In this document: in pieces, positions 22,318 to 43,250 of the stretch
How the letters are laid out: each line of letters starts with the position of its first letter
Position numbering within the stretch: position 1 is the stretch's first letter
IMG/VR virus record: IMGVR_UViG_3300038379_000741
Location: 12,941-76,940 of that record
Reading direction: 5' to 3' (one strand)
Length of the DNA stretch: 64,000 nt
From: a virus
Translations under genes and position numbers: made by a program
The notes under the pieces: generated by a model
Databases searched by the model: none
The model's input: the letters and a program-made list of their open reading frames with translations, nothing else
Told to the model about the DNA's origin: nothing

Positions 22318-22487
22318 AGAAGGACCGCCAAGACCTTGACCGAGCACCAAGACCCCAACCTGTTCTTCCAAGTCCGTCACAAGCATGACTCGAGGACGTC
22401 CTACTTCGAGCCGGACGGCCGCGCCAAGAGCGCCGAGGACGTCCCTGTCAAGGCCGAGGCCGAGTACAACTGCTGCTACGTCCCCTC

Positions 22488-22736
22488 ATGACCACCCCCG
22501 ACTTCAAGTGGCGGAAGGACGTCCCACCCGTCCCCGCGATCGAGTGTCGAGCCCACCCCGCGGGCGGCTTTGTCCGTCTCGAGTCCCTCCCCGACAACCG
22601 CCCCGAGCGGTACAACGAGATGACCAAGAAGTGGGAGCCGACTCCCCCGGGCGCCGTCGTCCACGTCATCACCGGCTACGGCCGGAGCCGCTCCTCCCTC
22701 GGCTTCCCCGAGGTCGAGTCGACCTCGGCCGAATAG
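22488..22736 (+). CDS. Hypothetical protein (82 aa)
   Basis: GC3-rich ORF between terS and terL. Confidence 0.5.
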   Translation: MTTPDFKWRKDVPPVPAIECRAHPAGGFVRLESLPDNRPERYNEMTKKWEPTPPGAVVHVITGYGRSRSSLGFPEVESTSAE

Positions 22737-22825
22737 AACTGCGGCGGTACGGTCGCGGAGTGCTCCCTCCCCTCCCCCGGGCTCCAGCACCCCGCACTCG
22801 GCCGCCGCACCTACTCCCGCAACGC

Positions 22826-24631
22826 ATGGCACGAGTAGCACGCCCCGACATCCTCCTTACTCCAAAGAAGCGCCGAGCCCTCGAGCGCAAGGCCCAGCGA
22901 GCATCCCTCGCCCTGGCTCCCCCACCTCACCCGGAGCCCGAACCCCTTCCCGAGATCGTCCTCAGCGACGGCCTCGAGGCCGTCAACGACTCAGGCGCCC
23001 AGATGCTCGCCGAGGCGATGGAGCGGTGGCGCCGCGACCCCGTCACCTTTGCGTGGGAAGTGCTCGGGATCTGGTGCTGGCGCAAGCAGCGCCAGATGCT
23101 CCGGATGATGTGCTTCAACCGGCGCGTCGCGATCCGGTCCGCGCAGAAATGCTCGAAGACCAACACGGTCGTGATCTTTGCGCTCTGGTGGCTGAACACC
23201 AAGCCGGGCGCCAAGGTGCTGGTCACCTCCTCCACCTATGACAACATCAAGGGCGTCTTCTGGGCCGAGCTGAAGCAGGTCGTCCGCCAGGCCCGCTGCC
23301 CGCTCGGCCTCCACGTCCCCGACGACCCCGCGACCGGCATCCATCTCTGGGACGGTCGCTTCCTCAAGGGCTTCTCGCCCGCCTCCCAGGAGGGCTGGGG
23401 CGGCTTCTCAGGCCCCTCGATGTGCTTCATCATCGACGAGGCCTCCGGCATCGACCAGCCCATGTTCGAGGCCATGGCCGGCAACCTCGCGGGCGGCGGC
23501 TCCCTCGTCATGATCGGCAACCCGATCCAGAACGACGGGCCCTTCTTCGACGCTTTCCACGCCATGAGGGGCGCCTGGGTCAGCATGTACATGTCGGGCT
23601 GGGACACCCCGAACTGCACGAGGGAGCGCGTCCAGATCCGCGATCACCGCACGGGCGAGTTCGCCTGGGCCACCGCGATCCCCGGCCTCGCCCAACCGGA
23701 CGAGATGGCCAAGGACGCCGAGATCTTCGGCACCACGCACTCGTTCTACGTCACCCGCCGCCTCGGCGACTTCGCCTCCGAGTCCGACAACTCCATCGTC
23801 CCCCTCGGCCTCGTCGAGAAGGCGCGAGCCCGCTGGCTCATTCCGGAGGGGCAGCCCGGCTACGTGACCGGCGTCGGCCGCCTCGTCATCGGCATCGACC
23901 CCGCCCGCTTCGGCACCGACGCCATCGCGATGGCGACCCGGCGCGGTCGCCGCGTCTATCGCCTCCAAGCCATCCAGGGCGCCAAGATTCGCGGGCAGGC
24001 CGGCCAAGACGCCAACCCCACCTTCGCGCTCACCCAGCACGTGGTCGCCAGGGTCCGCGAGGAGATCGAGTTCTACAACGCCCGGCAACGCCCCGACGAG
24101 AGACGCGCCCTCGTCAACATCGACGCGGGCGGCGGCTACGGCGCCGGGATCGCCGACATGCTCCGCCAGCTCCGTTGGTCTAAGGGCAAGCTCCTCGAGG
24201 GTCAGCTCATGTGCGACGTCGTCGAGGTCAACTCGTCCGAGGTCGCCGACGACGAGGACAACCTCTACAACATGCGGACCCAGCTCCTCTTCGGCGTGAA
24301 GGAGTGGTTGGAGTCGGCCCCGGCCGCGCTCCCGTGCGCGGTCACGGGCCCCGCCCAGGTCGAGTACGACATGCTGATGGTCGACCTCATCGCGACCCGC
24401 TACGGCCACGACAATCGCGCGCGCAAGAAGGCCGAGTCCAAGGACGAGGTCCGCAAGCGCCTCGGCCGCTCGCCCGACCGCGGCGACGCCCTCGCCCTCT
24501 GCCTCTACATGGGCGGTACCGTCCAGACCGACGCGCGCTCCACCGTACTGGCCTATGGTCGCCACGACTCCCTTGAGTTGACGTCGCCCGGCGGACAGAG
24601 GTCGGTGGTGATCGCCTCCCCGAGGTCCTGA
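22826..24631 (+). CDS. terL: Terminase large subunit
   Basis: RVAIRSAQKCSKT (Walker A), FIIDEASG (Walker B), IGNP, and nuclease motifs GIDPARFGTD and SPDRGDAL. Start placed at ATG 22826. Confidence 0.92.
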   Translation: MARVARPDILLTPKKRRALERKAQRASLALAPPPHPEPEPLPEIVLSDGLEAVNDSGAQMLAEAMERWRRDPVTFAWEVLGIWCWRKQRQMLRMMCFNRRVAIRSAQKCSKTNTVVIFALWWLNTKPGAKVLVTSSTYDNIKGVFWAELKQVVRQARCPLGLHVPDDPATGIHLWDGRFLKGFSPASQEGWGGFSGPSMCFIIDEASGIDQPMFEAMAGNLAGGGSLVMIGNPIQNDGPFFDAFHAMRGAWVSMYMSGWDTPNCTRERVQIRDHRTGEFAWATAIPGLAQPDEMAKDAEIFGTTHSFYVTRRLGDFASESDNSIVPLGLVEKARARWLIPEGQPGYVTGVGRLVIGIDPARFGTDAIAMATRRGRRVYRLQAIQGAKIRGQAGQDANPTFALTQHVVARVREEIEFYNARQRPDERRALVNIDAGGGYGAGIADMLRQLRWSKGKLLEGQLMCDVVEVNSSEVADDEDNLYNMRTQLLFGVKEWLESAPAALPCAVTGPAQVEYDMLMVDLIATRYGHDNRARKKAESKDEVRKRLGRSPDRGDALALCLYMGGTVQTDARSTVLAYGRHDSLELTSPGGQRSVVIASPRS

Positions 24632-24835: not shown

Positions 24836-25237
24836 ATGCGTCGACCCGTCCGATTCCCCGAGCCCGCGTCGCCCCTGCCGGCAGCCCCCGCACCGCCGAG
24901 TGAGCCGGAGGTCCTCACCTCGACCTACGGCGGCGACCTACCCGACATGGGCGTCGTCTGCCCGCCCGGCATGGTGCCGGCCCCGCCCCCGAAGAACATC
25001 ACGCACCAGAACATCGAGGAGTGGGTCAACCCCCCGGCCCACGCCCGGTTCGTGCCCGCGCCCCAGTCATCGGCACCCCCCGAGGAGGACCAGGAGCCAG
25101 CAGCCGCCTCGGCGATCCGGATCGCTCGCCGGGTCCTGCGCGACGAGTCCTCCTCACGTGACGCCAAGAAGGTCGCCCGCATGCTCATCTCCGTCCTCTC
25201 CATGAAGGTCCCGGACTCCCTCGCGAGGGAGGGGTGA
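24836..25237 (+). CDS. Pro-rich hypothetical protein (133 aa)
   Basis: Coupled to the portal gene. Confidence 0.5.
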   Translation: MRRPVRFPEPASPLPAAPAPPSEPEVLTSTYGGDLPDMGVVCPPGMVPAPPPKNITHQNIEEWVNPPAHARFVPAPQSSAPPEEDQEPAAASAIRIARRVLRDESSSRDAKKVARMLISVLSMKVPDSLAREG

Positions 25238-27195
25238 GCGAGTCGAGGTTCCACCCCGGCTTCCGGGTCCCCCTGAGCAACGGGGACAACGGCGTCGCCT
25301 GGCACCCGCTCTACGGGGCCATCAGCGACCCGTTCAACCAGCGGAGCGTCCCGAGCCCTCGGGCCCACGGGATCGCGTACCCGGAGCCCCTCGTTACCGA
25401 CCAGGGCGAGAGTCCCATGCGCCGCGAGCGCTCGCGGCCCGGCGGCGGGGCCCCTGACACGCGCCAGCTCGAGGGCCAGGTAGCGCCGCCGACCCAGATC
25501 GAGCGCTACCCCATCATCGTCGGCCGCAACCTTACGCTCGAGACCGTCTCGAGTCGGATGCGGCTCTGCCTCACCGGCTACCGCCAGCTCTACGTCGACC
25601 TACTCGACGAGCTGATCGAGCGCGACCCGCACTGCTACGCGGTCGTCGAGAAGCGCGCCACCACGATCGCGAACGCGGCCTTCAAAGTGGTCGCCCCGGC
25701 GCTTCCGGAGGAGGAGACCAAGTCGGGCAAGAAGCGGCCGCGCGTCTCCGCCTACCGGAAGGAAGCCTCCACTCGCCAGGACAAGGCTGACCGGATCGCC
25801 GACGAGTGCCAGCGCGACCTCGAGCGCGTTCCCCGCCTCAAGCAGCACCTCAAGTCGCTGGCTTGGGCCGACTACTGGGCCCTCTCGGGCACCGAGATGG
25901 TCTGGGGCCGCGACCAGCGCAGCAAACGTTGGAGGGTGACCGACATGGTCTTCCTCCACTCGCGTCGGCTCTCGTACCCGGACCCCTGGAATTGGGACCT
26001 CTACATCTGGGACCAGGGTGCCGTCATCGGCTCCCCCTACGGCGACGTCCGCCTCCCGCCCGGCATCTTTGGCTGGCGCGTCGCCGACTACCCCGGCAAG
26101 TTCGTCGTCCACTCCCCGCAGGTCCGCGGCAACTACCCGACCCGCGAGGGCCTCGGCCGCGAGCTGGCGTACTGGATGGTGCTCAAGCACATCGCCGCGC
26201 GCGCCGCCCCCAACTACCTCGAGCGCTTCTCGAACCCGCCGACCGACATCGCGTACGCGACCGCCAAGGAGGACGGTCTCCACCGGCCCGCCTCCGACGT
26301 CGACATCGCCGACGCCCGCGCCGCCATCCAGGCCGGCGTCATGCGCGCCTGGCTCCACCCCGACTCGCTGAAGTGGAACATCCTCAGCCCCGACGGCATC
26401 GGCGGCCGAGCGAAGGTGACGTTCACGGAGTGGATGAAGTACTGCGACGATCAGATGACCAAGGCGGTCCTGGGCTCCACGCTCGGCACCGACGCCGCCA
26501 CCTCGGGATCACGCGCCCTCGGCGACGTCCAGCGCAAGGACACCCTCGCCATCTTCCAGGCCTCCGCCGAGACCCTCGCCAACACCCTCGACGACTCCTA
26601 CGTCCGTACCTGGTGCGAGCTAAACTACCCGGGCGACGAGGACCTCTGGCCCCACATCCAGGTCAACCTCGAGGACGACCCCGACCCGATGCAGATCGTT
26701 TCGCGAGCCCTCAAGCTCGCCCAGGGTGGTGTCGCCGTCGACGGCGACAAGGTCGCCGAGGAGGTCGGGGTCCCGGTCGTCGCCGTCGACGACCCCGACG
26801 GTCGACCCATGCGGCCGATCAAGCCGGCCCTACCCACCGCGCCCCCGCAGGCTCCGCGCGTTCCCGGCAACACCCCCGAGGACACCGCCGCCGAGGCCGA
26901 GCAGGAGGCGAACGCGGCCACCCACTCCCACGTCCTCGAGGTCGCCCAGACCCGAACCCCCCAGCAGAAGGCCGCCGCCGAAGGACAGCCCGCCGCCCAG
27001 AAGGCCGCACCCAAGCCGGCCCCCAAGGTCGCGGCGTCCGAGGCCCCCGCCCTCACCTTCGCCCAGCGCCACTACCAGTTCTTGAGCGACCTGCGCACCA
27101 TGCGCGACCTCGGCTTCGAGATCACCGACGCCGAGGTCACCAGGCTCGCCGCCGAGCACGGGGTCCCCGCCCCCTCCAGGAGGAAGAGCACTTGA
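25234..27195 (+). CDS. Portal protein, Mu gp29/DUF935-like
   Basis: ERDPHCYAVVEKR, REGLGRELAY, YLERFSNP, YCDDQMTKAVLG and GSRALGDVQ motifs. Follows terL. Confidence 0.88.
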   Translation: MSESRFHPGFRVPLSNGDNGVAWHPLYGAISDPFNQRSVPSPRAHGIAYPEPLVTDQGESPMRRERSRPGGGAPDTRQLEGQVAPPTQIERYPIIVGRNLTLETVSSRMRLCLTGYRQLYVDLLDELIERDPHCYAVVEKRATTIANAAFKVVAPALPEEETKSGKKRPRVSAYRKEASTRQDKADRIADECQRDLERVPRLKQHLKSLAWADYWALSGTEMVWGRDQRSKRWRVTDMVFLHSRRLSYPDPWNWDLYIWDQGAVIGSPYGDVRLPPGIFGWRVADYPGKFVVHSPQVRGNYPTREGLGRELAYWMVLKHIAARAAPNYLERFSNPPTDIAYATAKEDGLHRPASDVDIADARAAIQAGVMRAWLHPDSLKWNILSPDGIGGRAKVTFTEWMKYCDDQMTKAVLGSTLGTDAATSGSRALGDVQRKDTLAIFQASAETLANTLDDSYVRTWCELNYPGDEDLWPHIQVNLEDDPDPMQIVSRALKLAQGGVAVDGDKVAEEVGVPVVAVDDPDGRPMRPIKPALPTAPPQAPRVPGNTPEDTAAEAEQEANAATHSHVLEVAQTRTPQQKAAAEGQPAAQKAAPKPAPKVAASEAPALTFAQRHYQFLSDLRTMRDLGFEITDAEVTRLAAEHGVPAPSRRKST

Positions 27196-27916: not shown

Positions 27917-28335
27917 AGAAGGCCGACGTCATCAAGCTCTACGAGGCCGAGATGGCCATGCTGGAGTCCAGCGAGGTCGCCGAGCTGGCCGCGGCCCGCA
28001 AGCTCCTCCGCGACTGCGAGGTCGCCGTCGTCGAGCACGAGCGCGGGGGGGCCCCACCGTCCGTCCTGGCCGCCCTCCAGAACCGCCGGGACGGCGCTCT
28101 CCGTCGGCTCCGTGCCGCTGAAAGCCCCCCGCCCCGCGCCCTCCAGGCGTTCCGCGGTCTGCGCACCCGCGTCCACGAGCAGCTCCAGGCCGAGGCCGGC
28201 GACCCGCCCGGGCTCGACGTCGAGGACCGCGACGAGGCCCACCACGTCCAGAAGAAGCACTTCAAGGCCATGTGGGTCCAGGCCGACGAGCTGGTCGCGA
28301 CCGCGGGCATCACCGCCAAGGGCCGTGCCACATGA
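27913..28335 (+). CDS. Hypothetical helical protein (140 aa)
   Basis: Coupled ORF. Confidence 0.55.
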   Translation: MKKADVIKLYEAEMAMLESSEVAELAAARKLLRDCEVAVVEHERGGAPPSVLAALQNRRDGALRRLRAAESPPPRALQAFRGLRTRVHEQLQAEAGDPPGLDVEDRDEAHHVQKKHFKAMWVQADELVATAGITAKGRAT

Positions 28336-28781
28336 GCATGTCGAACACGTCCGAGAGCAACATCCTCCAGCTGCTCTTCGAGAACACCAACTGGGCCAAC
28401 GTCGGGGACGCCACGGGCCTGCGCGGTTCCACGACCGCGGGCAGCTTCTACATCAGCCTCCACACCGCCGACCCCGGCGAGACCGGCACGCAGACGACGA
28501 GCGAGAGCGCGTACACCAACTACGCCCGCGTCTCTGTCGCGCGCTCCACCACCGGCTGGACGGTCTCGGGGACCGCCCCCACCCAGGCCGCCAACGACGC
28601 CGCCGTCACGTTCCCGACCTGCGGGGTCACGGGTTCGACGGTCACGCACTTCGAGATCGGCCGTGACAGCTCCGGGGCCGGAGAAAACATCCTCTACGGC
28701 CCGCTCGACGCGTCGCTGATCATCAACAGCGGCATCACGCCCAGCTTCGCCATCAGCGCCCTCAAGGGCACCTGCGACTGA
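28332..28781 (+). CDS. Virion structural protein (head/tail fibre-associated family, 149 aa)
   Basis: YISLHTADPGETG...YARVSVAR...VTFP...VTHF motif common in phage structural proteins. Confidence 0.65.
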   Translation: MSMSNTSESNILQLLFENTNWANVGDATGLRGSTTAGSFYISLHTADPGETGTQTTSESAYTNYARVSVARSTTGWTVSGTAPTQAANDAAVTFPTCGVTGSTVTHFEIGRDSSGAGENILYGPLDASLIINSGITPSFAISALKGTCD

Positions 28782-28784
28782 GAC

Positions 28785-29633
28785 GTGCTGCTACTCGCCA
28801 CCACCTCCGACAAGATCCAGCTCACGACGAGCAGCACCGCCAACACCGACGTCCACGCCTCCTTCGTCGACTTCGCCAGCGGGAGCACGACCCCAGGCCG
28901 CCAGAACACCCTCATCTCGTCGGCGGCGACCACGGACGTGGTCGCCTCCCCGGGTGCCAGCACGGTCCGGACCGTCAAGACCCTCACGGTCCGCAACCGC
29001 CACGCTAGCACGGCCCAGGACGTCACCGTCATCCACACGGACGGGACCACCGCCGTCGAGCTGATCAAGGCCACCCTCAACGCCGGTGACGCGCTCCACT
29101 ACGACGAGCACGGCGGGTTCACGGTCCGCGACCTCTTCGGGCGGATCAAGGAGCGGGACGACAACCTCCTTGCCACCGCCTCCCCGGACTTCACCACGGT
29201 CGTCCTGGGCTCCGACGTCGTCAACAACAACGGCACCGCGAACACGATCGCGGACGTGACCGGTCTGTCGTTCTCGGTCACGTCCGGGAACATCTACTGG
29301 TTCCAGTTCTACATCATGTACACCGCCAACGCGACGACCACGGGCTCGCGCTGGTCGGTCAACGGGCCCGCCTCCCCGACGTTCCTGCGCTTCAAGAGCG
29401 AGTACTCGCTGACGACGACGACGCGCACCATCAACGAGGGGTTGTCCGCCTACGATACCCCGGCGGGCGCCAGCGCCTCCAGCGCGGCCACCAACAGCAA
29501 CATCGCCTGGGTCGAGGGCTTCGTCCAACCGTCCGCCAACGGCACCCTCATCGCCCGCTTCGCCAGCGAGGTATCCTCGGCCGCCATCACGGCAAAGGCG
29601 GGGTCGGTCCTGTTCTGGCAGCAGGTTGCCTGA
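28785..29633 (+). CDS. Virion structural protein, paralog A (282 aa)
   Basis: Thr/Ser-rich and colinear with 29634-30494. Confidence 0.65.
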   Translation: MLLLATTSDKIQLTTSSTANTDVHASFVDFASGSTTPGRQNTLISSAATTDVVASPGASTVRTVKTLTVRNRHASTAQDVTVIHTDGTTAVELIKATLNAGDALHYDEHGGFTVRDLFGRIKERDDNLLATASPDFTTVVLGSDVVNNNGTANTIADVTGLSFSVTSGNIYWFQFYIMYTANATTTGSRWSVNGPASPTFLRFKSEYSLTTTTRTINEGLSAYDTPAGASASSAATNSNIAWVEGFVQPSANGTLIARFASEVSSAAITAKAGSVLFWQQVA

Positions 29634-30494
29634 GTGATCCTGCTCACGACCACCAGCGATGAGCTGCGGCTCGTCACCCGCGACGCGTCGTCCATTGACG
29701 TCCACGCCACCTACGCCGACCTAAGCTCGGGCGTGGTCACGCCGGGGCGGAAGAACACCGCGATCACGACGGCGACCACCACCGTCATCGCGGCTTCCCC
29801 GGCCGCCAGCACCCAGCGGACGATCAAGAAGGTCACGATCCGCAACAAGCACGTGACCCGGGCTTGCTGGGTCACGGTCGTGCACCGCCAGAGCGGCCCG
29901 ACCGACGCCGAGATCCAGACCGCCATGCTCGCGCCCGGGACCACGCTCTCTTACGAGGAGCACCAGCGCTGGCGTCGGCTCGCCGGGCCCTTCGGCTACC
30001 GCTCGCGCAAGAGCGACTTCGCCTCCACGTCGCCGGCGATAGGCCAGCTCTACACCCACTTTCTCGGCGAGGACGTCAGCAACGCGAACGCGACCGCTAA
30101 CCGCCTGCTCGACGTACCCGCCCTCGGCTTCTACGTCGTGGAGGGTCAGCGCTACTGGTTCCGCTTCGTCGTCATGTACTCCGCGGCGGCCACGACGACG
30201 GGGTCGCGGTGGTCGATCTACGGGCCTGGGTCGCCCACCGCCCTGCGATACGTCTCCGAGTATAGCCTCACGACGACGTCCAAGACCTCCATCGAGGGTT
30301 CCAGCGCCTACGACATCCCCGCCGCCGCGAACGCGACGAGCGCGGCCACCGGGCAGAACACCGCTTTCGTCGCGGGCTTCGTCGACACCCCCACCCAGAG
30401 CGGTAAGGTGTACCTCCGGTTCGCCAGCGAGGTCCTCTCGTCGGCCATCACGATCCTGCGCGGCTCGTGCGTGCAGTGGATGAGGACCACCTGA
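29634..30494 (+). CDS. Virion structural protein, paralog B (286 aa)
   Basis: Shares TTTGSRWS, SEYSLTTT and RFASEV with paralog A. Confidence 0.65.
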   Translation: MILLTTTSDELRLVTRDASSIDVHATYADLSSGVVTPGRKNTAITTATTTVIAASPAASTQRTIKKVTIRNKHVTRACWVTVVHRQSGPTDAEIQTAMLAPGTTLSYEEHQRWRRLAGPFGYRSRKSDFASTSPAIGQLYTHFLGEDVSNANATANRLLDVPALGFYVVEGQRYWFRFVVMYSAAATTTGSRWSIYGPGSPTALRYVSEYSLTTTSKTSIEGSSAYDIPAAANATSAATGQNTAFVAGFVDTPTQSGKVYLRFASEVLSSAITILRGSCVQWMRTT

Positions 30495-30495
30495 G

Positions 30496-31881
30496 ATGCC
30501 GAAGGGTGTATTCGACCCCGAGCTGATCCCGGGCGCGTGGGTCGACCCGGACCTCAACGAGCCGTCCCGCTTCGACTGGGACCTAGCCGACGAGGCCGCG
30601 GCCGGGGCGATCAGCGGCACTGCCTCGATCACGTTCGGGCAGTCGGGTAGTCTCGCCGGCTCCGGGGCCCTCGCGGGAACTGCCCCGGTCGTCTTCGACG
30701 AGTCCGGCAACCTCACGGGCTCCGGTGCCCTATCCGGCGGCGCTCCCGCCACGTTCGGGCAGCAGGGGACCGGCACGCTCGTCGCAGAGGCGTCCGGGGC
30801 CGCCGCCGCGACTTTCGGGCAGTCCGGCAGCCTCCAGGGCGACGGTGCCCTCGCCGGCACCGCCCCCACTCAGTTCGGTCAGCAGGGCTCGCTCCTCGGG
30901 GACGGGGCCCTCGCCGGCACCGCCCCCACTCAGTTCGGTCAGCAGGGCTCGCTCCTCGGGGACGGGGCCCTCGCCGGCACCGCCCCCGCGGTCTTCGGAC
31001 AGTCCGGCAGCCTCGCCGGCTCCGGGGCCCTCGCGGCCACCACCCAGGTCACCTTCGGCCAGTCCGGGGCGCTCGAGGGCGCGGGCGCACTGTCCGGCAC
31101 CGCCGCTGTCGTCTTCGACCAGAGCGGCGACCTCCAGGGCATCGCCGCGGGCGACATCTCCGGCACCGCCTCGATCGCGTTCGGGCAGTCCGGCGACCTC
31201 CAGGGCATCGCTCCCCCGACGCCGGCCGCGCGCGACACCTCCGGCGGGTCCGCCGGCTGGGCCTACAACCAGGCTGTCGCCAAGCCGATCCTCGACCTCT
31301 GGGACCTCCTCGAGGAGGAGCGGCGCCGGGCCAACCAATACGAGTACGAGCCCTGGTACCTCCCACCGTCCAGGCGCGCGACCCTACCGGCACTACCCCG
31401 CCGGCTCGCCACGTTCGTGGAGCCCCCGGTCGCGGCCGCGACCGCGCTCCCGACGCTCCCGACGACCGCGACCCGCACGCGCGACCTCCTCGCCGTCGCG
31501 CTGTCGGAGTGCCCCGGACCCTCAGCCACCTCCGTCGCCCAGGCCCCCGAGCCGCCCGTCATCCTGGCTGTTCTTCGGGAGCCGCGGGTGGTGTCGACGA
31601 TCACTCCATCTGCCGCCCAAGGCGCGAGCACCGGGCGACTCCCCTCCCTCGTCTCCCATCTGACGCCGGACCCGGGAGCGGCCCCCGCGCCCAGCTCCCT
31701 CTTCGTCGACGTCGAGCCCGCAGTCGCGCTTGCCATCCCGAGGAGTCCGACAACCGCGTCCCTCTCCGACCCACCCGCCGCAGTCCTGCTCCTCGAGCCC
31801 CCGCCGGGATACGGCGAGGCCGAGGACGAGCGCGAGACACGAGATCGGCGCGAGACGCGCCACGTCAAGCGGGCCGCGTAG
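30496..31881 (+). CDS. Repeat protein with ten ~20-aa Gly-rich units and a Pro/Ala-rich tail
   Basis: Units of the form GALAGTAPxxFGQxGSLxGx. Confidence 0.6.
   Translation: MPKGVFDPELIPGAWVDPDLNEPSRFDWDLADEAAAGAISGTASITFGQSGSLAGSGALAGTAPVVFDESGNLTGSGALSGGAPATFGQQGTGTLVAEASGAAAATFGQSGSLQGDGALAGTAPTQFGQQGSLLGDGALAGTAPTQFGQQGSLLGDGALAGTAPAVFGQSGSLAGSGALAATTQVTFGQSGALEGAGALSGTAAVVFDQSGDLQGIAAGDISGTASIAFGQSGDLQGIAPPTPAARDTSGGSAGWAYNQAVAKPILDLWDLLEEERRRANQYEYEPWYLPPSRRATLPALPRRLATFVEPPVAAATALPTLPTTATRTRDLLAVALSECPGPSATSVAQAPEPPVILAVLREPRVVSTITPSAAQGASTGRLPSLVSHLTPDPGAAPAPSSLFVDVEPAVALAIPRSPTTASLSDPPAAVLLLEPPPGYGEAEDERETRDRRETRHVKRAA
30841..30987 (+). repeat. 60-bp tandem repeat (~2.5 copies)
   Basis: Positions 30841-30900 and 30901-30960 differ at 1 nt, and a partial third copy follows. 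Confidence 0.95.
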
Positions 31882-33293: not shown

Positions 33294-33598
33294 GCGGCGA
33301 GCGCGGCTCCGTCCAGGTCGACGGCCGCAGGGTCGGCCCCAGCCAAGTCGGCGTCGACCAGCAGTACGTAGGCGCGATCACGCCCAGCGACGTCACCGTC
33401 TACGACCCGCCGCTCAAGAAGATCCGCGTGGGCGTCGCGGGGGCCGGCAACCTCGTCCTCGTCTACGCCGCCGACGACGAGTCCGTGGCCGCCAATCGCG
33501 ACACCGTCGCGGTCGCCAACAACCAAGTCGTCAGCGGCTTCCTGATCCGGCAAGTGCGGGCCGCCACCACCGCGACGACGCTGACCGGCTACCGATGA
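33290..33598 (+). CDS. Head spike-base-like protein, short paralog
   Basis: GAITPSD...KIRVGVAGAGNL...RQVRAATTATTLTGY. Confidence 0.6.
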   Translation: MSGERGSVQVDGRRVGPSQVGVDQQYVGAITPSDVTVYDPPLKKIRVGVAGAGNLVLVYAADDESVAANRDTVAVANNQVVSGFLIRQVRAATTATTLTGYR

Positions 33599-36549
33599 GG
33601 GCCCTCATCGGCGACGACGGTGGGAGCTACACTCCAACCTCCGCGCTTTCGATCAGCGCCGGCCCCGTCCGGCTCCTCGACATCGGCGTCGTCGACGTGC
33701 ACCGAGACGGAGCAGGCGGACACTACACCCCGATCGACGGGCCCACACTCGAGCAGCTTACACGCTCGCTCGACGACAGAGCGGTCACGATGCCGTTCGT
33801 CTCGCAGGCGCAGCGGCAGTGGATGCACATCAACCACCCCGAGATCGCCAAGCGGTGGGAGAAGCACACACCAAAGGGTGCCCACCTCCCCTGGCGCGTC
33901 CAGTCCAAGGACTCGGTCCCGAGCCCCGGCGACGTCGCCCTCATCGTCGTCGACGACGGCAACGGGCGCGTCCTCACGGTCTCGCGCGACGGCAACCCGG
34001 CCAACATCGCGATCCCGGGCGGTCACGTCGAGGCCGACGAGCACCCCGCCGTTGCGGCCTCCCGCGAGTTGTACGAGGAGACCGGCGTCTCGACGTGGGT
34101 ATCGGGCTCCAACATGGTCGAGGAGCTTTTCAGCGCCGGACGACCGGACGCCCACGGCGAAGACTACGTCTACCGCGCCGTCTCGCACGACGCTCTCAGC
34201 ATCCCGAGCTTCACGCCCGAACCCGGCGAGCACGTCCGTTGGGCCCTCCCGAGCGAGCTGCTCTGCGACACGTGCACGTTCCGGGACTGGACCCGCCAGC
34301 ACTTCGACGCCCTCTTCGGGCACCTCCAGAAGGTTCCAATGACTGACCCCAAGAAGCCCGTCACCGTGTCCGTCCACGTCCAGCCGATGCTGGACGGCAA
34401 GCCCATCACGATGGCGGAGCTGGAGACCCGCTTCGGTGACCTCGGGACCGGCGCGCGCAAGGGCCTCCCGGACACGGCTTTCGCCTCTCCGGGCGACCGC
34501 AAGTACCCGATCCACGACGCCGCCCACGTCCGCAACGCGGCCGCCCGACTCGAGCAGCAGAAGGGCTCCATGAGCCCCGCCAAGTACCGGCAAATCCGCT
34601 CGCGCATTGCGCGCGCCGCCAAGCGCTTCGGGATCAAGAGCGCCTACAACGCCCCCAAGAAGACCGCCGAGAAGCCGACGGTGCCGAGCAATCAGCGCAT
34701 CAGCGTCCACGCCGACATCGCCCCTGGCGGGCGCGTCCACGTCGTCCACCACATGAGCGACAAGGACGGACGTGAGTGGAACGCCTACCGAATCCGCGCC
34801 CTCGGCACCGAGGACGCCGCCGGGTTCCACCTCCAGCTCGCCGACGCGGACCGCCCGAAGAAGCTGGTCTGGATCCAGCTCGCCGAGTGCGGCGCGTTCC
34901 GCGGCCACCCCGCGGGGGCCTTCGCGCTCACCCCGACCGTCTTCTCCGAGATCGTCCGCAACTTCGACGCCGACGGCATCCCGGTCCCGATCGATTACGA
35001 GCACGCGAGCGAGCAGGAGCCCACCGCCGGCAACATCCCCCGCCACGGGGCCCCGGCCCAGGGCTGGATCCACAAGCTCGAGAACCGCGGCGACGACGGC
35101 CTCTGGGGCCTCGTCGAGTGGGGCCCGCAGGCCGCCGACCAGATCCGTACCGGTCAGTACCGGTACATCTCGCCCGCCATCCGGTTTGGGGCCAAGGACC
35201 GCCAGAGCGGTCACGAGATCGGCGCCAAGCTCACCTCCGCCGGCCTCACCAACCAGCCCTTCCTGAAGGGCATGCAGGTCCTCGCCGCCAAGGATCGCGG
35301 CGCGTCGCACACGATGCAGACGACCACCGAGTCCGACGCCGACAGCAGCGTCCCGATGCAGACCATGGCCGACTCCGACGCCCCCCTCGGCGCGTTCGGA
35401 GCATTCGGTGCCTTTGTCGACGAGGCCGACATGGCCGCCTTCGCGGCTTTCCGGGCCGCGCGCATGGCCGCCTTCGCCGCCAAGCCCCCGCCGCCCACCA
35501 AGCCCTCGGAGTACATGCCCCGGATCAAGGCGGCGCTCCGGCTCGCCGACCTCGCGACCTGCGCGGAGACGATGGCGCAGTTCTGCCGGCTCCGGGACCG
35601 CTTCATGGCCGTCTCGGCCGAGTACTCGACGACTGCCGAGTACAAGAGTGCCGATGGCGTCGACCTCGGCGGCTACGTCGGCGCCCTGGCCGACATCGCC
35701 GCGAAAGACCGACTCAGCGCCACCCTCCACGAGGTCCTCGAGATCGTCCACCACATGATCTGCGTGGCCATGGAGAAGCACGAGCTGGAGATGCACATCG
35801 ACCAGCTCGCCGAGGAGGACGCGATGGAGGCCGCAGAGGAGCGCCTCATGCAGGATCTTGCGAAGGACTCGACCCTTGCGGCGGCCTTCGGTGAGCAGAA
35901 ACCCCAAACCCCGGCGCAAGGCGAAACGAATCCACAAGGAGACACGACGATGGACATCAAGCTCGCAGACCACGAAAAGGCAATCGCGGCCAAGGACGGC
36001 GTGATCCAGTCCAAGGACACCGAGATTGAGGGCCTTAAGCTCCAGCTCTCGTCCAAGGACGGCAAGATCACCGAGCTGGCCGCCAAGCTCACCGAGGCCG
36101 AGCAGCGGGAGCAGGACCGGCTCGCCAAGGACCTCGACGCCGAGGCCGACGCCATGATCGCCAACCCCGACAACCATCTCAAGGCGGAGTCCAAGCCGAC
36201 GGTCCTGCGCCTCCTCAAGGCGGATCCGGAAGGCACCCGCTCCCTCTACAAGGCGGCCGCGGTCCCCGCGGCCGGCGGTGCCCTCCCCCCGAAGTTCCAC
36301 CACCTCTCACAGCGCCTCCCGGCGTCGCGCCCGGGCGGCTCTAAGGACGAGGCGGACGGCAAGCTCCCCGACATCCTCGTCATGGGCGACGGCTGCGAGA
36401 TCGAGAGCAAGCTCCTCGCCGAGACGCGCGAGCAGACCACGGATCGCCTCATGTCCGAGAAGAAGCTCTCGTTCGAGGACGCCAGCCAGGAGGCCTGGGA
36501 CGCCCACAACCGCCTCTCCCAATACACCCGGCAGTCGCACGCGCGCTGA
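33595..36549 (+). CDS. Polyprotein: Nudix hydrolase + small domains + Mu gpI-like prohead protease + scaffold
   Basis: Nudix box GGHVEADEHPAVAASRELYEETG. Protease motifs PIDYEH, AQGWI, LWGLVEW, YRYISP and LTNQPFL. C-terminal coiled coil. Confidence 0.85.
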   Translation: MRALIGDDGGSYTPTSALSISAGPVRLLDIGVVDVHRDGAGGHYTPIDGPTLEQLTRSLDDRAVTMPFVSQAQRQWMHINHPEIAKRWEKHTPKGAHLPWRVQSKDSVPSPGDVALIVVDDGNGRVLTVSRDGNPANIAIPGGHVEADEHPAVAASRELYEETGVSTWVSGSNMVEELFSAGRPDAHGEDYVYRAVSHDALSIPSFTPEPGEHVRWALPSELLCDTCTFRDWTRQHFDALFGHLQKVPMTDPKKPVTVSVHVQPMLDGKPITMAELETRFGDLGTGARKGLPDTAFASPGDRKYPIHDAAHVRNAAARLEQQKGSMSPAKYRQIRSRIARAAKRFGIKSAYNAPKKTAEKPTVPSNQRISVHADIAPGGRVHVVHHMSDKDGREWNAYRIRALGTEDAAGFHLQLADADRPKKLVWIQLAECGAFRGHPAGAFALTPTVFSEIVRNFDADGIPVPIDYEHASEQEPTAGNIPRHGAPAQGWIHKLENRGDDGLWGLVEWGPQAADQIRTGQYRYISPAIRFGAKDRQSGHEIGAKLTSAGLTNQPFLKGMQVLAAKDRGASHTMQTTTESDADSSVPMQTMADSDAPLGAFGAFGAFVDEADMAAFAAFRAARMAAFAAKPPPPTKPSEYMPRIKAALRLADLATCAETMAQFCRLRDRFMAVSAEYSTTAEYKSADGVDLGGYVGALADIAAKDRLSATLHEVLEIVHHMICVAMEKHELEMHIDQLAEEDAMEAAEERLMQDLAKDSTLAAAFGEQKPQTPAQGETNPQGDTTMDIKLADHEKAIAAKDGVIQSKDTEIEGLKLQLSSKDGKITELAAKLTEAEQREQDRLAKDLDAEADAMIANPDNHLKAESKPTVLRLLKADPEGTRSLYKAAAVPAAGGALPPKFHHLSQRLPASRPGGSKDEADGKLPDILVMGDGCEIESKLLAETREQTTDRLMSEKKLSFEDASQEAWDAHNRLSQYTRQSHAR

Positions 36550-36655: not shown

Positions 36656-37078
36656 ATGGCTGTCACCGACTTCGTGTGGGCACGCACCCACCTTCCCTCC
36701 GACCTGACCGGCGTCAACAACCACGCGACCGACGACATCGGCCCCAACCTCTGCGTCAAGGTCGATACCACCGCGGCCAACACACTCCCGACGGCCGCGG
36801 CCGTCGGGGTCGCACTCGCCACGACCGACGACACGATCTACGGCGTCACCGTCGAGACCATGAAGGCGGTCGGCGGCTACGGGCGCGTCGCCCAGCACGG
36901 CATCGTGCAGTGCGTCGCCTCCGCCGCCATCGCGGTCGGAGCCTGGGTCCAGGCCTCCACCGTCGGCAAGGTCGTGACCAGCGCCGCCGCCAAGCCGTCG
37001 GTCGGCATCGCCCTCACCGCCGCGGGCGCGGACACCGACCCCGTCCTCGTCCTGCTCCACATCGGCAAGAACGCCTAA
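36656..37078 (+). CDS. Capsid cement/decoration protein (DUF2190-like)
   Basis: GIVQCVASAAIAVG...VGIALTAA, located between the scaffold and capsid genes. Confidence 0.75.
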   Translation: MAVTDFVWARTHLPSDLTGVNNHATDDIGPNLCVKVDTTAANTLPTAAAVGVALATTDDTIYGVTVETMKAVGGYGRVAQHGIVQCVASAAIAVGAWVQASTVGKVVTSAAAKPSVGIALTAAGADTDPVLVLLHIGKNA

Positions 37079-37121
37079 CCCGAGCGTTCGTCTCGGTTTG
37101 CTCAAGAAAGGAAGAAGAGAA

Positions 37122-38444
37122 ATGAACGCTCCCAACGCCCCCACCAAGCTCGAAGTCCCGGCAGGTCACGTCCTGTCGACGGAGCGAGACGAGTCCGGCT
37201 CCCTCCGGCTCCGATTCATCGAGCTGGAGACCGGCGCGGTCCGCTTCACCGACGGCTCCATGGCCCCCGCCGACGAGCAGCTCCGCCCGTCCGACAAGGT
37301 CGTCGACCGCCAGCGCGACAAGATGCTCGCCCACTACGCCTTCCACGAGCAGCTCCAGGCGTACGGGACGATGCACAAGGTCAAGAAGATGAGCGCGCCG
37401 ACCGGCTTCCGCGTCCTCTCCATGAAGGAGGGCTTCACGGACGACCGCATCGGCTGCCGACCCACGGGCAAGCGCCTGCTCGACATCGGCGTCGCTGACG
37501 TCCACCGCGACGCGAACCTGCCGAACTACGCGGCCGGCTACTCGCTCGCGGAGGGTATCGCCGACGTGCTCTCCTCGCCGATCGTGACCGCCAAAGCCAC
37601 GAACTTCTACATGACCTGGGACGACATCAACTCGTTCCGCCGCGTCAAGCCGAACGCCTCCGCCCCCGGCGCGGGCGTGCCCGAGGTCAGCATCTCGAAG
37701 ACGGACGCCCGGTACGTCACCGTGCCGTACGCGCTCGCCGGATTCATGCCGACCGAGGTGGAGACGAACGCGGACACCCCGCTCCGTCCCTTCCAAAAGC
37801 TCGTGCGCCGCATCATGGAGGCCCTCTACCTCGAGCGCGAGATTCGCGTCTCCGCCCTCCTGACCACGTCGGCGAACTGGGACGCCGGTCACGTCACCAC
37901 GGTCGCGGCCGGCGCGAAGTGGAACGGCGGAGCCAGCTCGGACCCGGTCCGCAACATCAAGAACCTGATGGAGCTTTCGGCCCAGAAGGTCACCGGCATC
38001 GGCATGAGCCGCCAGCTCTACGACATCTTCACCGAGAACCAGGCGGTGCAGAAGTACATCGCCTACAAGACGCAGGTGGCGCCGATTCCGAACCCGGCCA
38101 ACATCGCGGCGCTGCTCGACCTCCCGCCCATCTACGTGCAGGAGATGAAGTACTACGCGAGCGGCACCACGTTCTCGTGGCCCCTCGGCGGGCACGTGGT
38201 CCTCTTCCGGCAGCCGCCCGAGATGCCCCCGACCTCCCAGGACGACGTGTCCACCTCGGCCACGTTCCGGTTCCTCGGCGGCGACTCCCCGGACGGGACC
38301 CAGCAGGGCGGCTGGATCGTCCGCACGTTCTTCATGCCGGATCGCGGCGAGCGCGGCGGCCGCAAGGTCGTGGTCGCCCACAACGACGCCGAGGTCATGG
38401 CTTCCAAGATCACGGGCGGCCTCATCCTGAACGCCTACCAGTGA
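37122..38444 (+). CDS. Major capsid protein
   Basis: Position and size, plus HK97-like capsid motifs (YALAGFMPTEV, LEREIRVSALL, WNGGASSDPVRNI). Confidence 0.82.
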   Translation: MNAPNAPTKLEVPAGHVLSTERDESGSLRLRFIELETGAVRFTDGSMAPADEQLRPSDKVVDRQRDKMLAHYAFHEQLQAYGTMHKVKKMSAPTGFRVLSMKEGFTDDRIGCRPTGKRLLDIGVADVHRDANLPNYAAGYSLAEGIADVLSSPIVTAKATNFYMTWDDINSFRRVKPNASAPGAGVPEVSISKTDARYVTVPYALAGFMPTEVETNADTPLRPFQKLVRRIMEALYLEREIRVSALLTTSANWDAGHVTTVAAGAKWNGGASSDPVRNIKNLMELSAQKVTGIGMSRQLYDIFTENQAVQKYIAYKTQVAPIPNPANIAALLDLPPIYVQEMKYYASGTTFSWPLGGHVVLFRQPPEMPPTSQDDVSTSATFRFLGGDSPDGTQQGGWIVRTFFMPDRGERGGRKVVVAHNDAEVMASKITGGLILNAYQ

Positions 38445-41708: not shown

Positions 41709-43250
41709 ATGACTTGGGACATCGCAGGATTCGACTCTACGTACCTCCGCCCCATCTTTGCGGCCAAGATCGTGTACGCAGCCGGGCCGGCCGTCGGCCA
41801 GGGCCCGATGAACGTGCTCTGCATGGGCCTCAAGACGTCGGCGGGCAACCTCGTCGTCGACTCCGAGATCCGGCAGTGCTTCTCGCGCGAGGACGTGGTG
41901 ACGGCAGCCGGTGACGGCTCCCAGCTCGCCCTCATGGGCATCGCGGCCCTCAAGGCCAACCCAAACTGCAACCTCTTCCTCATCGCCGTGACCGAGGCCG
42001 GCGGCGGCACCGCCGCGACCGTCACGATGCTGCTCGCTACCATCCCGACCTCGGACGGCACCATCACGGTGCGCGTCGCCGGGGCTTCGATGAACGTGAG
42101 CTACGCGGCCGGCACCGCGATCGACACCATCGGCGCCAACCTCGCCTCGCGCATCAACGCGCAGGTCGACTGTCCGGTCACGGCCTCCTACAGCGCCGGC
42201 TCCGACACCCTCACGCTCACGTCCAAGAACGTCGGCATCGGTACCAAGGACATCATCGTCTACCAGGACCTCTCGCTCTCGGGCGGAGTGACCTCGACGA
42301 TGACGGGCTCCGCCGACGTCAACGTCTTCGGCCAGATCAAGGGCGTCCGGATGGGCGCGGCCGGCGGTACCGGCACCGAGGACTACACGACCGCCCTCAC
42401 CAAGATCCAGACCAAGCGCTACGCGCGCATCGCGGTCGGCACCAACGACGCCACGAACGCCGCCCTGGTCGAGACCACGGTCAACAACCTCGCCGCCGTA
42501 ACGGTCCAAATCTACGACCAGTTCATGTTCGGCCACAACGGCACACAGGGTCAGGCTACCACGCTCGCGCAGACCACCCTCAACGCTCCCCGCGCGCAGG
42601 TCTACGCCTACCGCAACTCCGAGACCCCGCCGTGGGTCATCGCGGGTGGTTGGGCGGCGGTCCGCGCCGCGACCGAGGGCGACGACCCCGTCCCCGACTA
42701 CGACAACTACGACTGCTCGGCGTGGATCTTCCCCACGCAGTTCGACTCGGACACGTGGCTGCCGACGGAGGAGAACGCCCTGCTCAACGCGGGTGTGACT
42801 CCGATCAAGACCGAGAACGCAGCCCCCAAGGTCGTGCGCAGCATCACGACCTACTGCCTCAACGGAGCCGTCCAGGACACGCGCACGCTCGACATCGGCG
42901 ACGCAGTCTTCCCCGACTACGCCTACTTCGACCTCCAAAACCTCTACGGCACCTTCCGCGAGGCCAACAAGTACGCCGAGCCCGACCCCGACATCGCGGC
43001 CGGCGATACCTTCCCGGTCGCCGGGGTCGCGTACCCGCAGCTCTGGGTCAAGACCGTCATCGGCCTCATGTACGACTGGAGGGCCAACGGTTGGATCGAG
43101 GACACGTTCTCGGGCGACAACCCCGCCTACCCGGTGCAGGCGTCCTGGAACAAGGCCGCCCGCCGAATCCAGTCCAACGTCCCCTTCGTGGTCAACCGCG
43201 TCATTCACCAGCTCTCGGTGATCGCGCGCCAGACGGCGCCGGCTGCCTGA
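41709..43250 (+). CDS. Contractile tail sheath protein (Mu gpL-like)
   Basis: GDGSQLALM, EENALLNAGVTP and VVRSITTY motifs, 513 aa. Confidence 0.88.
   Translation: MTWDIAGFDSTYLRPIFAAKIVYAAGPAVGQGPMNVLCMGLKTSAGNLVVDSEIRQCFSREDVVTAAGDGSQLALMGIAALKANPNCNLFLIAVTEAGGGTAATVTMLLATIPTSDGTITVRVAGASMNVSYAAGTAIDTIGANLASRINAQVDCPVTASYSAGSDTLTLTSKNVGIGTKDIIVYQDLSLSGGVTSTMTGSADVNVFGQIKGVRMGAAGGTGTEDYTTALTKIQTKRYARIAVGTNDATNAALVETTVNNLAAVTVQIYDQFMFGHNGTQGQATTLAQTTLNAPRAQVYAYRNSETPPWVIAGGWAAVRAATEGDDPVPDYDNYDCSAWIFPTQFDSDTWLPTEENALLNAGVTPIKTENAAPKVVRSITTYCLNGAVQDTRTLDIGDAVFPDYAYFDLQNLYGTFREANKYAEPDPDIAAGDTFPVAGVAYPQLWVKTVIGLMYDWRANGWIEDTFSGDNPAYPVQASWNKAARRIQSNVPFVVNRVIHQLSVIARQTAPAA

Follow-up and report, generated by a model that had tools for sequence, protein, structure and literature searches.

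Fusions in which a Nudix domain is joined to a portal protein, to MuF or to a capsid-processing serine peptidase are described in section 3.5.2 of Iyer, Burroughs, Anantharaman and Aravind (2022, Viruses 14:1977, PMC9503650), where packaging of such proteins into the phage head and their injection are predicted. A related prediction concerns the polyvalent proteins, whose C-terminal assemblin-like peptidase is expected to process them while the virion is being assembled (Iyer et al. 2017, J Bacteriol 199:e00245-17, PMC5512222), the delivery of their domains into the host being a prediction in the literature too (PMC5512222). The fusion type and the packaging and injection idea considered here have thus already been published as predictions (Iyer et al. 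2017, 2022), and the locus reported below is not a new class of system. In Mu-type phages a PF10123 protease is followed by an in-frame scaffold, and in the Mu-like phage KS10 a nested in-frame scaffold gene is annotated (PMC2628397).

The window (the whole stretch of DNA analysed in the current work, 64,000 nucleotides) derives from a 94,388-bp IMG/VR record of an uncultured, myovirus-like phage. According to PHROG matches, the gene under study is located between the portal and major capsid protein (MCP) genes of a myovirus head module, the relevant members of which are the following:

22385..24631, + strand: large terminase (phrog_2, E 2e-24).
25234..27195, + strand: portal protein (phrog_113, E 1e-35).
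33595..36549, + strand: gene of the 984-aa head polyprotein (P0001), recognised by its open frame, its Pfam and PHROG domains and an ATGA overlap with the upstream gene.
36656..37078, + strand: cement or decoration protein (PF09956 Phage_cement_2, E 1.8e-5, above cut-off).
37098..38444, + strand: MCP (phrog_1005 match from aa 134), for which the start codon context indicates ATG 37122 as the likely true start.

The MCP gave no tblastn match among cultured phages at E 1e-5 or better, and the family is therefore one without an experimentally mapped MCP N-terminus. When the polyprotein was used as tblastn query against cultured phages, matches were confined to aa about 400-583, the protease core, and did not exceed 38% identity; with the proteases of Mu-like phages, about 30-38% of residues are shared in a stretch of about 170 aa. 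The Nudix region gave no match at E 1e-5 or better.

An earlier note on this DNA had proposed an unbroken fusion of small domains and a Nudix hydrolase to a prohead protease and scaffold, and both the continuity and the domain order are borne out by the translation and by Pfam and PHROG. The gene comprises 984 codons and zero stops, its ATG overlapping the stop codon of the upstream gene, and the product consists of a disordered leader, a two-helix module, a Nudix domain, DUF6582, a Mu gpI-type protease (PF10123) and a coiled-coil scaffold. The Pfam matches (NUDIX, DUF6582 and Mu-like_Pro) all exceed the curated cut-offs, and in the AlphaFold2 model pLDDT is above 85 for the Nudix domain, DUF6582, the protease and the scaffold helices, with low-confidence linkers between them. 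An assembly artefact or a missed stop as the origin of the fusion was ruled out by the occurrence of the same architecture in more than 20 independent sequences. The domains are distributed as follows:

33790..33894, + strand: two-helix mini-domain (MPFVSQAQRQWMH...), aa 66-100, conserved in P0002, P0003, P0005 and P0007.
33922..34332, + strand: Nudix hydrolase domain, aa 110-246 (PF00293, E 1e-13; pLDDT above 90; Foldseek).
34021-34089, + strand: Nudix box, aa 143-165, complete GX5EX7REUXEEXGU.
34411..34644, + strand: DUF6582, a small helical domain, aa 273-350 (PF20223, E 1.5e-11; phrog_16160; pLDDT above 90).
34855..35289, + strand: Mu gpI-type prohead protease core, aa 421-565 (PF10123, PHROG 328; pLDDT 85-96).
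35002-35004, + strand: protease H470, invariant.
35170-35172, + strand: protease S526, invariant.
35422..36549, + strand: helical and coiled-coil scaffold region, aa 610-984, with long helices at 610-760 and 790-900, covered by the C-terminal portions of the matches to PF10123 and PHROG 328.
35950..36549, + strand: possible nested gpZ-like scaffold gene of 199 aa, from an in-frame ATG at aa 786 with AAGGAG 7 nt upstream.

The protease was identified by PF10123 Mu-like_Pro (aa 439-802, E 2e-31, 110.3 bits versus a cut-off of 25.2) and by PHROG 328 (head maturation protease, E 4e-34). H470 and S526 are invariant in all 69 aligned family members and, by analogy with the family, would form the catalytic pair of a serine protease; in Pfam, the Mu-like protease presumably belongs among the assemblin-like serine peptidases. 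A PDB sequence search with the protease core returned no meaningful match, and the Foldseek list for the model of the whole polyprotein was filled by Nudix matches. Met 786, the putative internal start, is kept in about 9 of the 15 Nudix-bearing homologues, in a linker that aligns poorly across distant loci.

The polyprotein shares with Mu gpI/gpZ, KS10 gp28/gp29 and BcepMu gp32/gp33 the succession of a PF10123 protease and an in-frame scaffold and the position between portal and MCP, and it may have a comparable internal start, whereas the Mu-type proteins begin at the protease and the polyprotein carries about 420 more N-terminal residues with a predicted enzyme. The earlier note restricts Mu gpI/gpZ to a protease and a scaffold, which is correct for Mu but does not extend to the wider family, which mostly carries DUF6582 and in some members other N-terminal domains. 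As in the fusions of Iyer et al. 2022, a Nudix domain and a capsid-processing serine peptidase are present in one chain within the head module of a contractile-tail phage, and the same prediction applies. The section of that paper cited above places its fusions in a T4 NudE-like clade, whereas the polyprotein Nudix is only 32% identical to T4 NudE over 92 aa (pairwise BLASTP E 3e-5), a weak match that is no better than those to DIPP, MutT and ADPRase; the same section is silent on DUF6582, on the mini-domain and on any polyprotein copy of an MCP-junction peptide.

Polyvalent proteins are recognised by at least two effector-type domains accompanying a peptidase in a virion-gene context, and here the Nudix domain, DUF6582 and the mini-domain precede the assemblin-like peptidase of a single polypeptide encoded in a head module. 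Moreover, the InPase and MuF domains of the polyvalent catalogue (PMC5512222) fill the Nudix slot in relatives of the polyprotein. In contrast to the polyvalent proteins of that paper, the polyprotein has few cargo domains and its peptidase is followed by a long scaffold rather than being placed at the very C-terminus, and the sole context in which PMC5512222 mentions Nudix is next to InPase or fused to it. The logic proposed here resembles that of the T4 internal proteins and Alt, non-structural proteins that enter the core of the prohead, are trimmed there by its protease (T4 gp21), remain in the head and are ejected with the DNA, steps which for the present phage we infer from its genes. 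T4 cargo proteins, however, are separate gene products whose N-terminal capsid-targeting peptide binds the scaffold core, while the cargo of the polyprotein is covalently joined to the protease-scaffold, and the two are not homologous. The herpesvirus assemblin precursor is likewise a protease-scaffold fusion, self-processed at R and M sites that share a consensus (as is proposed for the polyprotein), but it has no enzyme cargo, belongs to a eukaryotic host and shows no detectable sequence similarity.

The Nudix domain was matched by Pfam (PF00293) over aa 114-222 at E 1e-13 and is the sole Nudix domain of the 94,388-bp record. The box, claimed as intact by the earlier note, is indeed complete in the translation (G143-x5-E149-x7-R157-E158-L-x-E161-E162-x-G164-V), and G143, E149, R157, E158, E161, E162, G164 and E209 are invariant in all 15 aligned Nudix-bearing homologues, which are just 32-59% identical overall. 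The domain is thus a predicted hydrolase whose active-site residues are intact and conserved. Foldseek gave a probability of 1.0 for the matches to both MutT (3a6v; TM by target 0.74, rmsd 3.3) and ADPRase (1v8m; E 3.9e-6). Since matches by sequence (PDB) and by fold are to generic Nudix proteins (MutT, ADPRase, RppH, DIPP), no substrate can be assigned, and any specific substrate call was dropped for the same reason; rules that look for a proline or a tyrosine at a distance of 15-18 residues from the end of the box were also dropped, as the spacing fits poorly. The substrate and any anti-defence role of the enzyme are accordingly guesses.

The mini-domain is modelled by AlphaFold2 as two helices (71-80 and 82-91, pLDDT about 76) and has no match in Pfam or PHROG. 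In P0007 this MPFVSQAQRQW module is placed after the Nudix domain, and it is therefore regarded as a mobile module. Small viral proteins of 48-59 aa in the ESM Atlas resemble it, with scores at the level of a lead. DUF6582 (Pfam match aa 291-348, E 1.5e-11) is found ahead of the protease in most family members; it gave no PDB sequence match, no solved structure reached a Z of 5 in the fold comparison, and its BFVD matches are other phage proteins only, one of which is named prohead protease.

Nudix is likewise fused to Mu-like_Pro in 20 or more other proteins of uncultured phages or prophages. The same NUDIX and Mu-like_Pro architecture is seen in 14 further proteins and in seven more cluster representatives; six of these seven representatives also carry DUF6582. 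Among 1.8 billion representatives, the nearest relatives of the Nudix domain are the same fusions, followed lower in the list by P0116, a Portal_Mu protein that carries a Nudix at its C-terminus, and by P0131, in which Nudix and InPase are joined. Mapping of the Nudix label onto the protease tree takes 10 changes, and well-supported branches force at least eight of them. Precomputed domains and a direct Pfam scan of seven members show that close relatives have InPase or MuF where the polyprotein has Nudix, so that the N-terminal region acts like a slot in which cargo can be exchanged. ParB-type domains also belong to the polyvalent catalogue, and the precomputed domains place one in this slot in P0034, but the direct scan, at E 0.01 or better, did not recover it.

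What is new in the current work is a leader peptide, RLLDIGVVDVHRD, which copies the junction between the N-terminal extension and the core of the MCP. The following segments are relevant to this observation:

33670..33708, + strand: MCP-junction peptide copy RLLDIGVVDVHRD, aa 26-38 of the polyprotein, a candidate processing or targeting tag (MCP match, disordered segment aa 1-50, motif in homologues).
34333..34401, + strand: disordered linker with the degenerate motif VTVSVHVQP, aa 247-269, a possible second processing site (homologue alignment; pLDDT below 50).
34702..34755, + strand: conserved motif ISVHADIAPGGRVHVVHH, aa 370-387, between DUF6582 and the protease, a possible self-processing site (family consensus IHVRADLAxGGxLHVRH).
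37473-37511, + strand: MCP junction motif RLLDIGVADVHRD, at the extension/core boundary in 17 of 17 related MCPs.

The capsid-like peptide of the earlier note corresponds to aa 26-38, of which 12 of 13 residues are identical to the MCP junction. Four of these 12 residues are encoded by different codons in the two genes, and a recent DNA duplication as the source of the motif was ruled out by these synonymous differences. In all 17 aligned MCPs the motif marks the junction of a variable N-extension and the conserved core, and it starts anywhere from about aa 35 to 280 of the MCP ORFs, the extensions thus being of very different lengths. Across 23 related loci, DLGxxDVH-type motifs were found in polyprotein and MCP ORFs only and in no other ORF. 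Motif pairs from one phage are more alike than cross pairs, the observed sum being reached by 2 of 5040 permutations (1 of 720 when L002 is left out). The shared peptide is most likely a processing or targeting tag.

In the AlphaFold2 model the polyprotein motifs fall in low-pLDDT linkers that separate confident domains. In the alignment, the VTVSVHVQP linker lies opposite complete DLGxxDVH motifs in P0007, P0011, P0015, P0017, P0029 and P0030, and ISVHADIAPGGRVHVVHH resembles the DLGxxDVH motif, which suggests that it may serve in self-processing. While most homologues carry the motif in linkers between domains, P0085, P0094 and P0181 have it at residues 8-17, at the extreme N-terminus and ahead of the Nudix domain, and in P0094 the copied stretch runs on into the MCP core motif (..HYAGGY). 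A cut at this N-terminal position would not free the cargo, and a docking role therefore fits these three proteins as well as cleavage does.

We propose that the gene product is a head-maturation polyprotein, which its scaffold and Mu gpI-type serine protease would bring into the assembling prohead, the N-terminal modules (mini-domain, Nudix and DUF6582) entering as cargo; this incorporation we regard as probable. The activated protease would then cut the MCP at the junction RLLDIGVADVHRD and also the polyprotein at look-alike linker sites, that is at aa 26-38, probably at about 256-263 and at about 370-387, cleavage at the motifs being a step towards which the evidence tips slightly. The folded Nudix fragment of roughly 25 kDa would stay in the capsid and, being too big for the capsid pores, would exit together with the DNA in the following infection. 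Early in that infection it may hydrolyse a nucleoside-diphosphate-X compound, most plausibly one derived from NAD or ADP-ribose or another nucleotide signal. Ejection with an early role falls just short of an even chance in our judgement, and a substrate specifically derived from NAD or ADP-ribose we consider rather unlikely. The in-frame start at aa 786 would probably provide an additional, cargo-free scaffold, as in Mu I/Z. Taken as a whole, the explanation of a Nudix cargo that is packaged, cut at MCP-like sites, retained and ejected is one that we favour by a small degree. Cutting of the polyprotein at maturation, which the earlier note had also put forward, receives indirect support from the MCP-like motifs in predicted disordered linkers, from the invariant protease His and Ser and from the presence of the same Nudix clade on a Mu-type portal and on an InPase protein.

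Self-digestion is frequent among prohead proteases, which often break down the scaffold to small peptides as well, and the Nudix domain could thus be destroyed instead of being kept. This habit would suit an enzyme that acts late in the producing cell (by clearing nucleotides or alarmones, by RNA decapping or by pyrophosphate trimming), its fusion merely tying expression to the head genes and its prohead copies being degraded with the scaffold and left undelivered. The standalone late-cluster Nudix genes noted in the cited section of Iyer et al. 2022 (PMC9503650) are in keeping with such a role, which is nevertheless improbable, because co-expression hardly explains the occurrence of one clade on three partners from the head interior (a protease-scaffold, a Mu-type portal at its C-terminal end and an InPase protein). 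The replacement of Nudix by InPase or MuF, described as virion-packaged domains (PMC5512222 and PMC9503650), also argues against it, as does the compact, confidently modelled fold with disordered linkers on both sides. A purely structural or regulatory function in head assembly, for instance as a plug or spacer by which protease activation is held back, would leave the domain without a part to play in the next host and perhaps without catalysis. It agrees with the location of the N-terminal modules directly upstream of the protease and with the company that DUF6582 keeps with the protease in most of the family. We consider it very improbable, since invariance of the metal-binding and catalytic residues of the box and of E209 in 15 diverged homologues is unexpected for a pure spacer, and close relatives that lack Nudix or have InPase instead indicate that Nudix is dispensable for assembly.

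As regards the motif itself, DLGxxDVH might be a docking peptide that mimics the N-arm of the MCP and anchors the polyprotein, cargo included, to the inside of the capsid wall, to the scaffold or to the portal, with release, if any, at other sites. Its placement before Nudix in P0085, P0094 and P0181, together with the extension of the P0094 copy into the MCP core motif, favours docking, and covariation within each phage suits a binding partner as well as a protease. This possibility is rated as low as that of a late-acting enzyme, given that the MCP motif lies exactly where unconserved N-extensions of variable length end, the usual signature of a propeptide boundary, that most homologues carry the motif between domains, and that assemblin-type proteases generally cut their own precursor at consensus-sharing sites, as at the herpesvirus R and M sites.

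Extending the packaged-cargo explanation to the family, DLGxxDVH may be a portable tag read by the Mu-type prohead protease and defining an exchangeable slot, in which the enzyme encoded between the tags and DUF6582 (Nudix, InPase, MuF-linked or perhaps ferritin-like) would be loaded, freed and injected. We put this generalisation forward as speculative and rather doubtful. The specificity of such a tag, as opposed to the T4 capsid-targeting sequence, would co-evolve with the capsid protein of each phage. If true, tag and slot would constitute a natural, programmable system for loading cargo into capsids, and a defined tag and slot could serve to load chosen proteins into phage capsids.

The polyprotein offers several handles for tests, namely the candidate peptide shared with the MCP, the predicted fragment boundaries and the natural InPase and MuF variants. 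If confirmed, the explanation proposed here would give experimental footing to the published prediction that capsid-borne nucleotide-hydrolysing enzymes are injected ahead of gene expression, and the injected Nudix could, for instance, blunt immunity based on NAD or ADP-ribose or on other nucleotide signals.

The earlier note had described a single frame of 984 amino acids joining a Nudix domain to a prohead protease, and this was confirmed by translation: window positions 33595-36549 (+) form an uninterrupted ORF of 984 codons, whose start ATG overlaps the preceding gene's stop (ATGA) and whose third-position G+C content (92%) resembles that of the neighbouring genes. Comparison with Pfam returned three families, each over its curated cut-off, and comparison with PHROGs returned family 328, head maturation protease (E 4e-34). 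An AlphaFold2 model, based on an alignment of 69 homologues, comprises confident parts connected by low-confidence linkers (aa 1-50, 94-109, 247-269, 357-368, 384-420, 565-609 and 760-789).

Pfam families and confidently modelled parts of the polyprotein
aa 114-222, NUDIX (Pfam E 1e-13)
aa 291-348, DUF6582 (Pfam E 1.5e-11)
aa 439-802, Mu-like_Pro, PF10123 (Pfam E 2e-31)
aa 70-91, two-helix module (model)
aa 110-246, Nudix domain (model)
aa 273-350, DUF6582 domain (model)
aa 421-565, protease core (model)
aa 610-760 and 790-900, long scaffold helices (model)
aa 925-983, C-terminal helical part (model)

The Nudix box is indeed intact, all of its residues being present in the translation. Among 15 homologues that bear a Nudix, with an overall identity of only 32-59%, no substitution occurs at G143, E149, R157, E158, E161, E162, G164 or E209. 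The same is true of protease residues H470 and S526 throughout the 69 family members. A separate 199-aa scaffold may be translated from an internal ATG, in frame at aa 786, which has AAGGAG upstream and a Met kept in approximately nine of 15 close homologues; nested protease and scaffold genes have been annotated in the Mu-like phage KS10 (PMC2628397).

The gene is located in a head module that is encoded entirely on the + strand.

Head module
22385-24631, +, large terminase
25234-27195, +, portal
between portal and polyprotein, +, several unknown genes
36656-37078, +, cement protein (PF09956), downstream of the polyprotein
37098-38444, +, major capsid protein (MCP)
downstream of the MCP, +, neck genes and a tail sheath (41709-43250)

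The first ~150 residues of the terminase ORF (22385-24631, +) are Arg/Pro/Ser-rich and resemble out-of-gene read-through, the true start probably being internal, near aa 140-165. Positions 28272-28781 (+) match phrog_240 ‘head protein’ and PF23140 (podophage GP4 fiber I protein gp80; E 8e-19), and no MuF-type gene was recognised in the module. Two adjoining paralogues of 282 and 286 aa (28785-29633 and 29634-30494, +), lacking a Pfam match and having at most one weak PHROG match of unknown function, both carry DVH at aa 22-24 (..TANTDVHASF.., ..ASSIDVHATY..); they may be cut by the protease as well or belong to the head interior, or the tripeptide may be due to chance. They are followed by a 461-aa protein without family match (30496-31881, +), consisting mostly of tandem ~20-aa repeats (FGQSGSLxGxGALAGTAP...) and a Pro/Ala-rich tail. 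The IMG/VR record (94,388 bases, estimated completeness 88%) encodes one Nudix domain only, that of the polyprotein. At genome level the protease is closest (53-54% identity) to sequences from MAGs of Myxococcales and Polyangiaceae, which, together with a G+C content of 68%, suggests a myxobacterial host.

A search of 5.8 billion proteins, which took in proteins of 541-1722 aa, some possibly truncated at contig ends, yielded 69 relatives. NUDIX and Mu-like_Pro co-occur in 15 of these (the window's own included), most also with DUF6582; DUF6582 accompanies the protease in ~46, and InPase, Phage_Mu_F or intein-type domains are present in others. When the Nudix domain by itself served as query in a second, profile-free search of 1.8 billion cluster representatives, these fusions again took the top ranks, above standalone Nudix proteins of 120-140 aa with weaker scores. 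This search added seven NUDIX plus Mu-like_Pro proteins (six with DUF6582), together with P0116, in which a Nudix is joined to the C-terminal side of Portal_Mu, and P0131, a Nudix+InPase protein of 1026 aa. Fusions of this kind form a family, and the window's protein is no accident. Mapped on a maximum-likelihood tree of protease cores, the Nudix label requires 10 gains or losses, at least eight forced by well-supported branches, and direct domain scans located InPase (P0009, P0059) or MuF (P0033) in the N-terminal slot of close relatives; the N-terminus thus acts like a cargo position with exchangeable content. Some Nudix-bearing relatives (P0005, aa 326-380, and P0008) contain an extra insert after DUF6582 that weakly resembles ferritin/Dps-like PF00210 (E 0.002, below cut-off). 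The DUF6582 model has a BFVD match annotated as a Dps-like phage protein, and no mention of DUF6582 was found in the searched literature.

Sequence comparison of the Nudix with solved structures returned DIPP, NudJ, MutT and ADPRase, with coverage barely beyond the box, while T4 NudE matched at 32% over 92 aa and Foldseek matches were generic (MutT, TM by target 0.74; Thermus ADPRase, E 4e-6; RppH); a generic Nudix, and not a specific substrate, can be read from these matches. InPase is a pyrophosphate-bond hydrolase, and its presence in place of the Nudix in close relatives hints that hydrolysis of a nucleotide-type pyrophosphate linkage may be the activity selected in this slot. Such hydrolysis was argued for InPase by Iyer et al. 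2017 (PMC5512222).

The capsid-like peptide reported previously was recovered at aa 26-38 (RLLDIGVVDVHRD), 12 of 13 residues being identical to the MCP (RLLDIGVADVHRD); the codons differ at 4 of these 12 residues, which rules out a recent DNA copy as its origin. Across 23 related IMG/VR and GTDB loci, the DLGxxDVH-type pattern is confined to the ORFs of the polyprotein and the MCP. In 17/17 aligned MCPs it marks the junction of an unconserved, length-variable N-extension (the motif beginning anywhere from ~aa 35 to 280 of the ORF) with the core that is conserved (..LPNYAGGY..), as is typical of propeptide boundaries. Motifs of the same phage's polyprotein and MCP are more alike than cross-phage pairs (identity sum 66, reached by 2 of 5040 permutations, or 1 of 720 without the near-duplicate locus L002, for seven pairs uncorrected for shared ancestry).

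The motif precedes the Nudix in the window's polyprotein, P0085, P0094 and P0181, and lies between Nudix and DUF6582 in P0007, P0011, P0015, P0017, P0029, P0030, P0070, P0072, P0075 and P0076. In the window's polyprotein the Nudix-DUF6582 linker holds a degenerate version (VTVSVHVQP, aa ~255-263), and the DUF6582-protease interval contains ISVHADIAPGGRVHVVHH (aa 370-387), a conserved motif related to it. Assemblin-type precursors self-cleave at consensus sites, and by analogy the polyprotein motifs are read as sites that would be processed by the phage's own protease. That the peptide is instead a docking element is a live alternative, particularly where it occupies the extreme N-terminus.

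The listed MCP ORF begins at TTG 37098; ATG 37122, which follows a purine-rich stretch, is the more likely start and would shift residue numbers by 8. Three related viral contigs (L007:8477-11686, L001:12445-13578 and L010:12914-14182) carry an additional MCP-like domain, with 28-29% identity to the window's MCP, in the interval from the protease region to the main MCP. In L001 and L010 this domain has its own ORF; in L007 it makes up the C-terminal portion of a stop-to-stop frame of 1070 codons, and that frame overlaps the protease gene region.

Polyvalent proteins bearing an assemblin-like peptidase at their C-termini were described by Iyer et al. 2017 (PMC5512222), who deemed processing during virion assembly probable. 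The proposal of the earlier note, that the Nudix is packaged, released by maturation cleavage and delivered against host defences, is already published as a prediction in Iyer et al. 2022 (PMC9503650), where fusions of Nudix domains to MuF, portal and the capsid-processing serine peptidase are described; an experimental test of this prediction was not found in the searched literature. Incorporation and processing of the polyprotein have reasonable indirect support, delivery and an anti-defence role, matching the published hypothesis, are speculation, and the interpretation as a whole is partly supported. What the locus adds is a candidate tag common to polyprotein and MCP with within-phage covariation, predicted fragment boundaries, and evidence that the content of the cargo slot can be swapped in the DUF6582 plus PF10123 lineage, making it a good test case for a known prediction more than a discovery.
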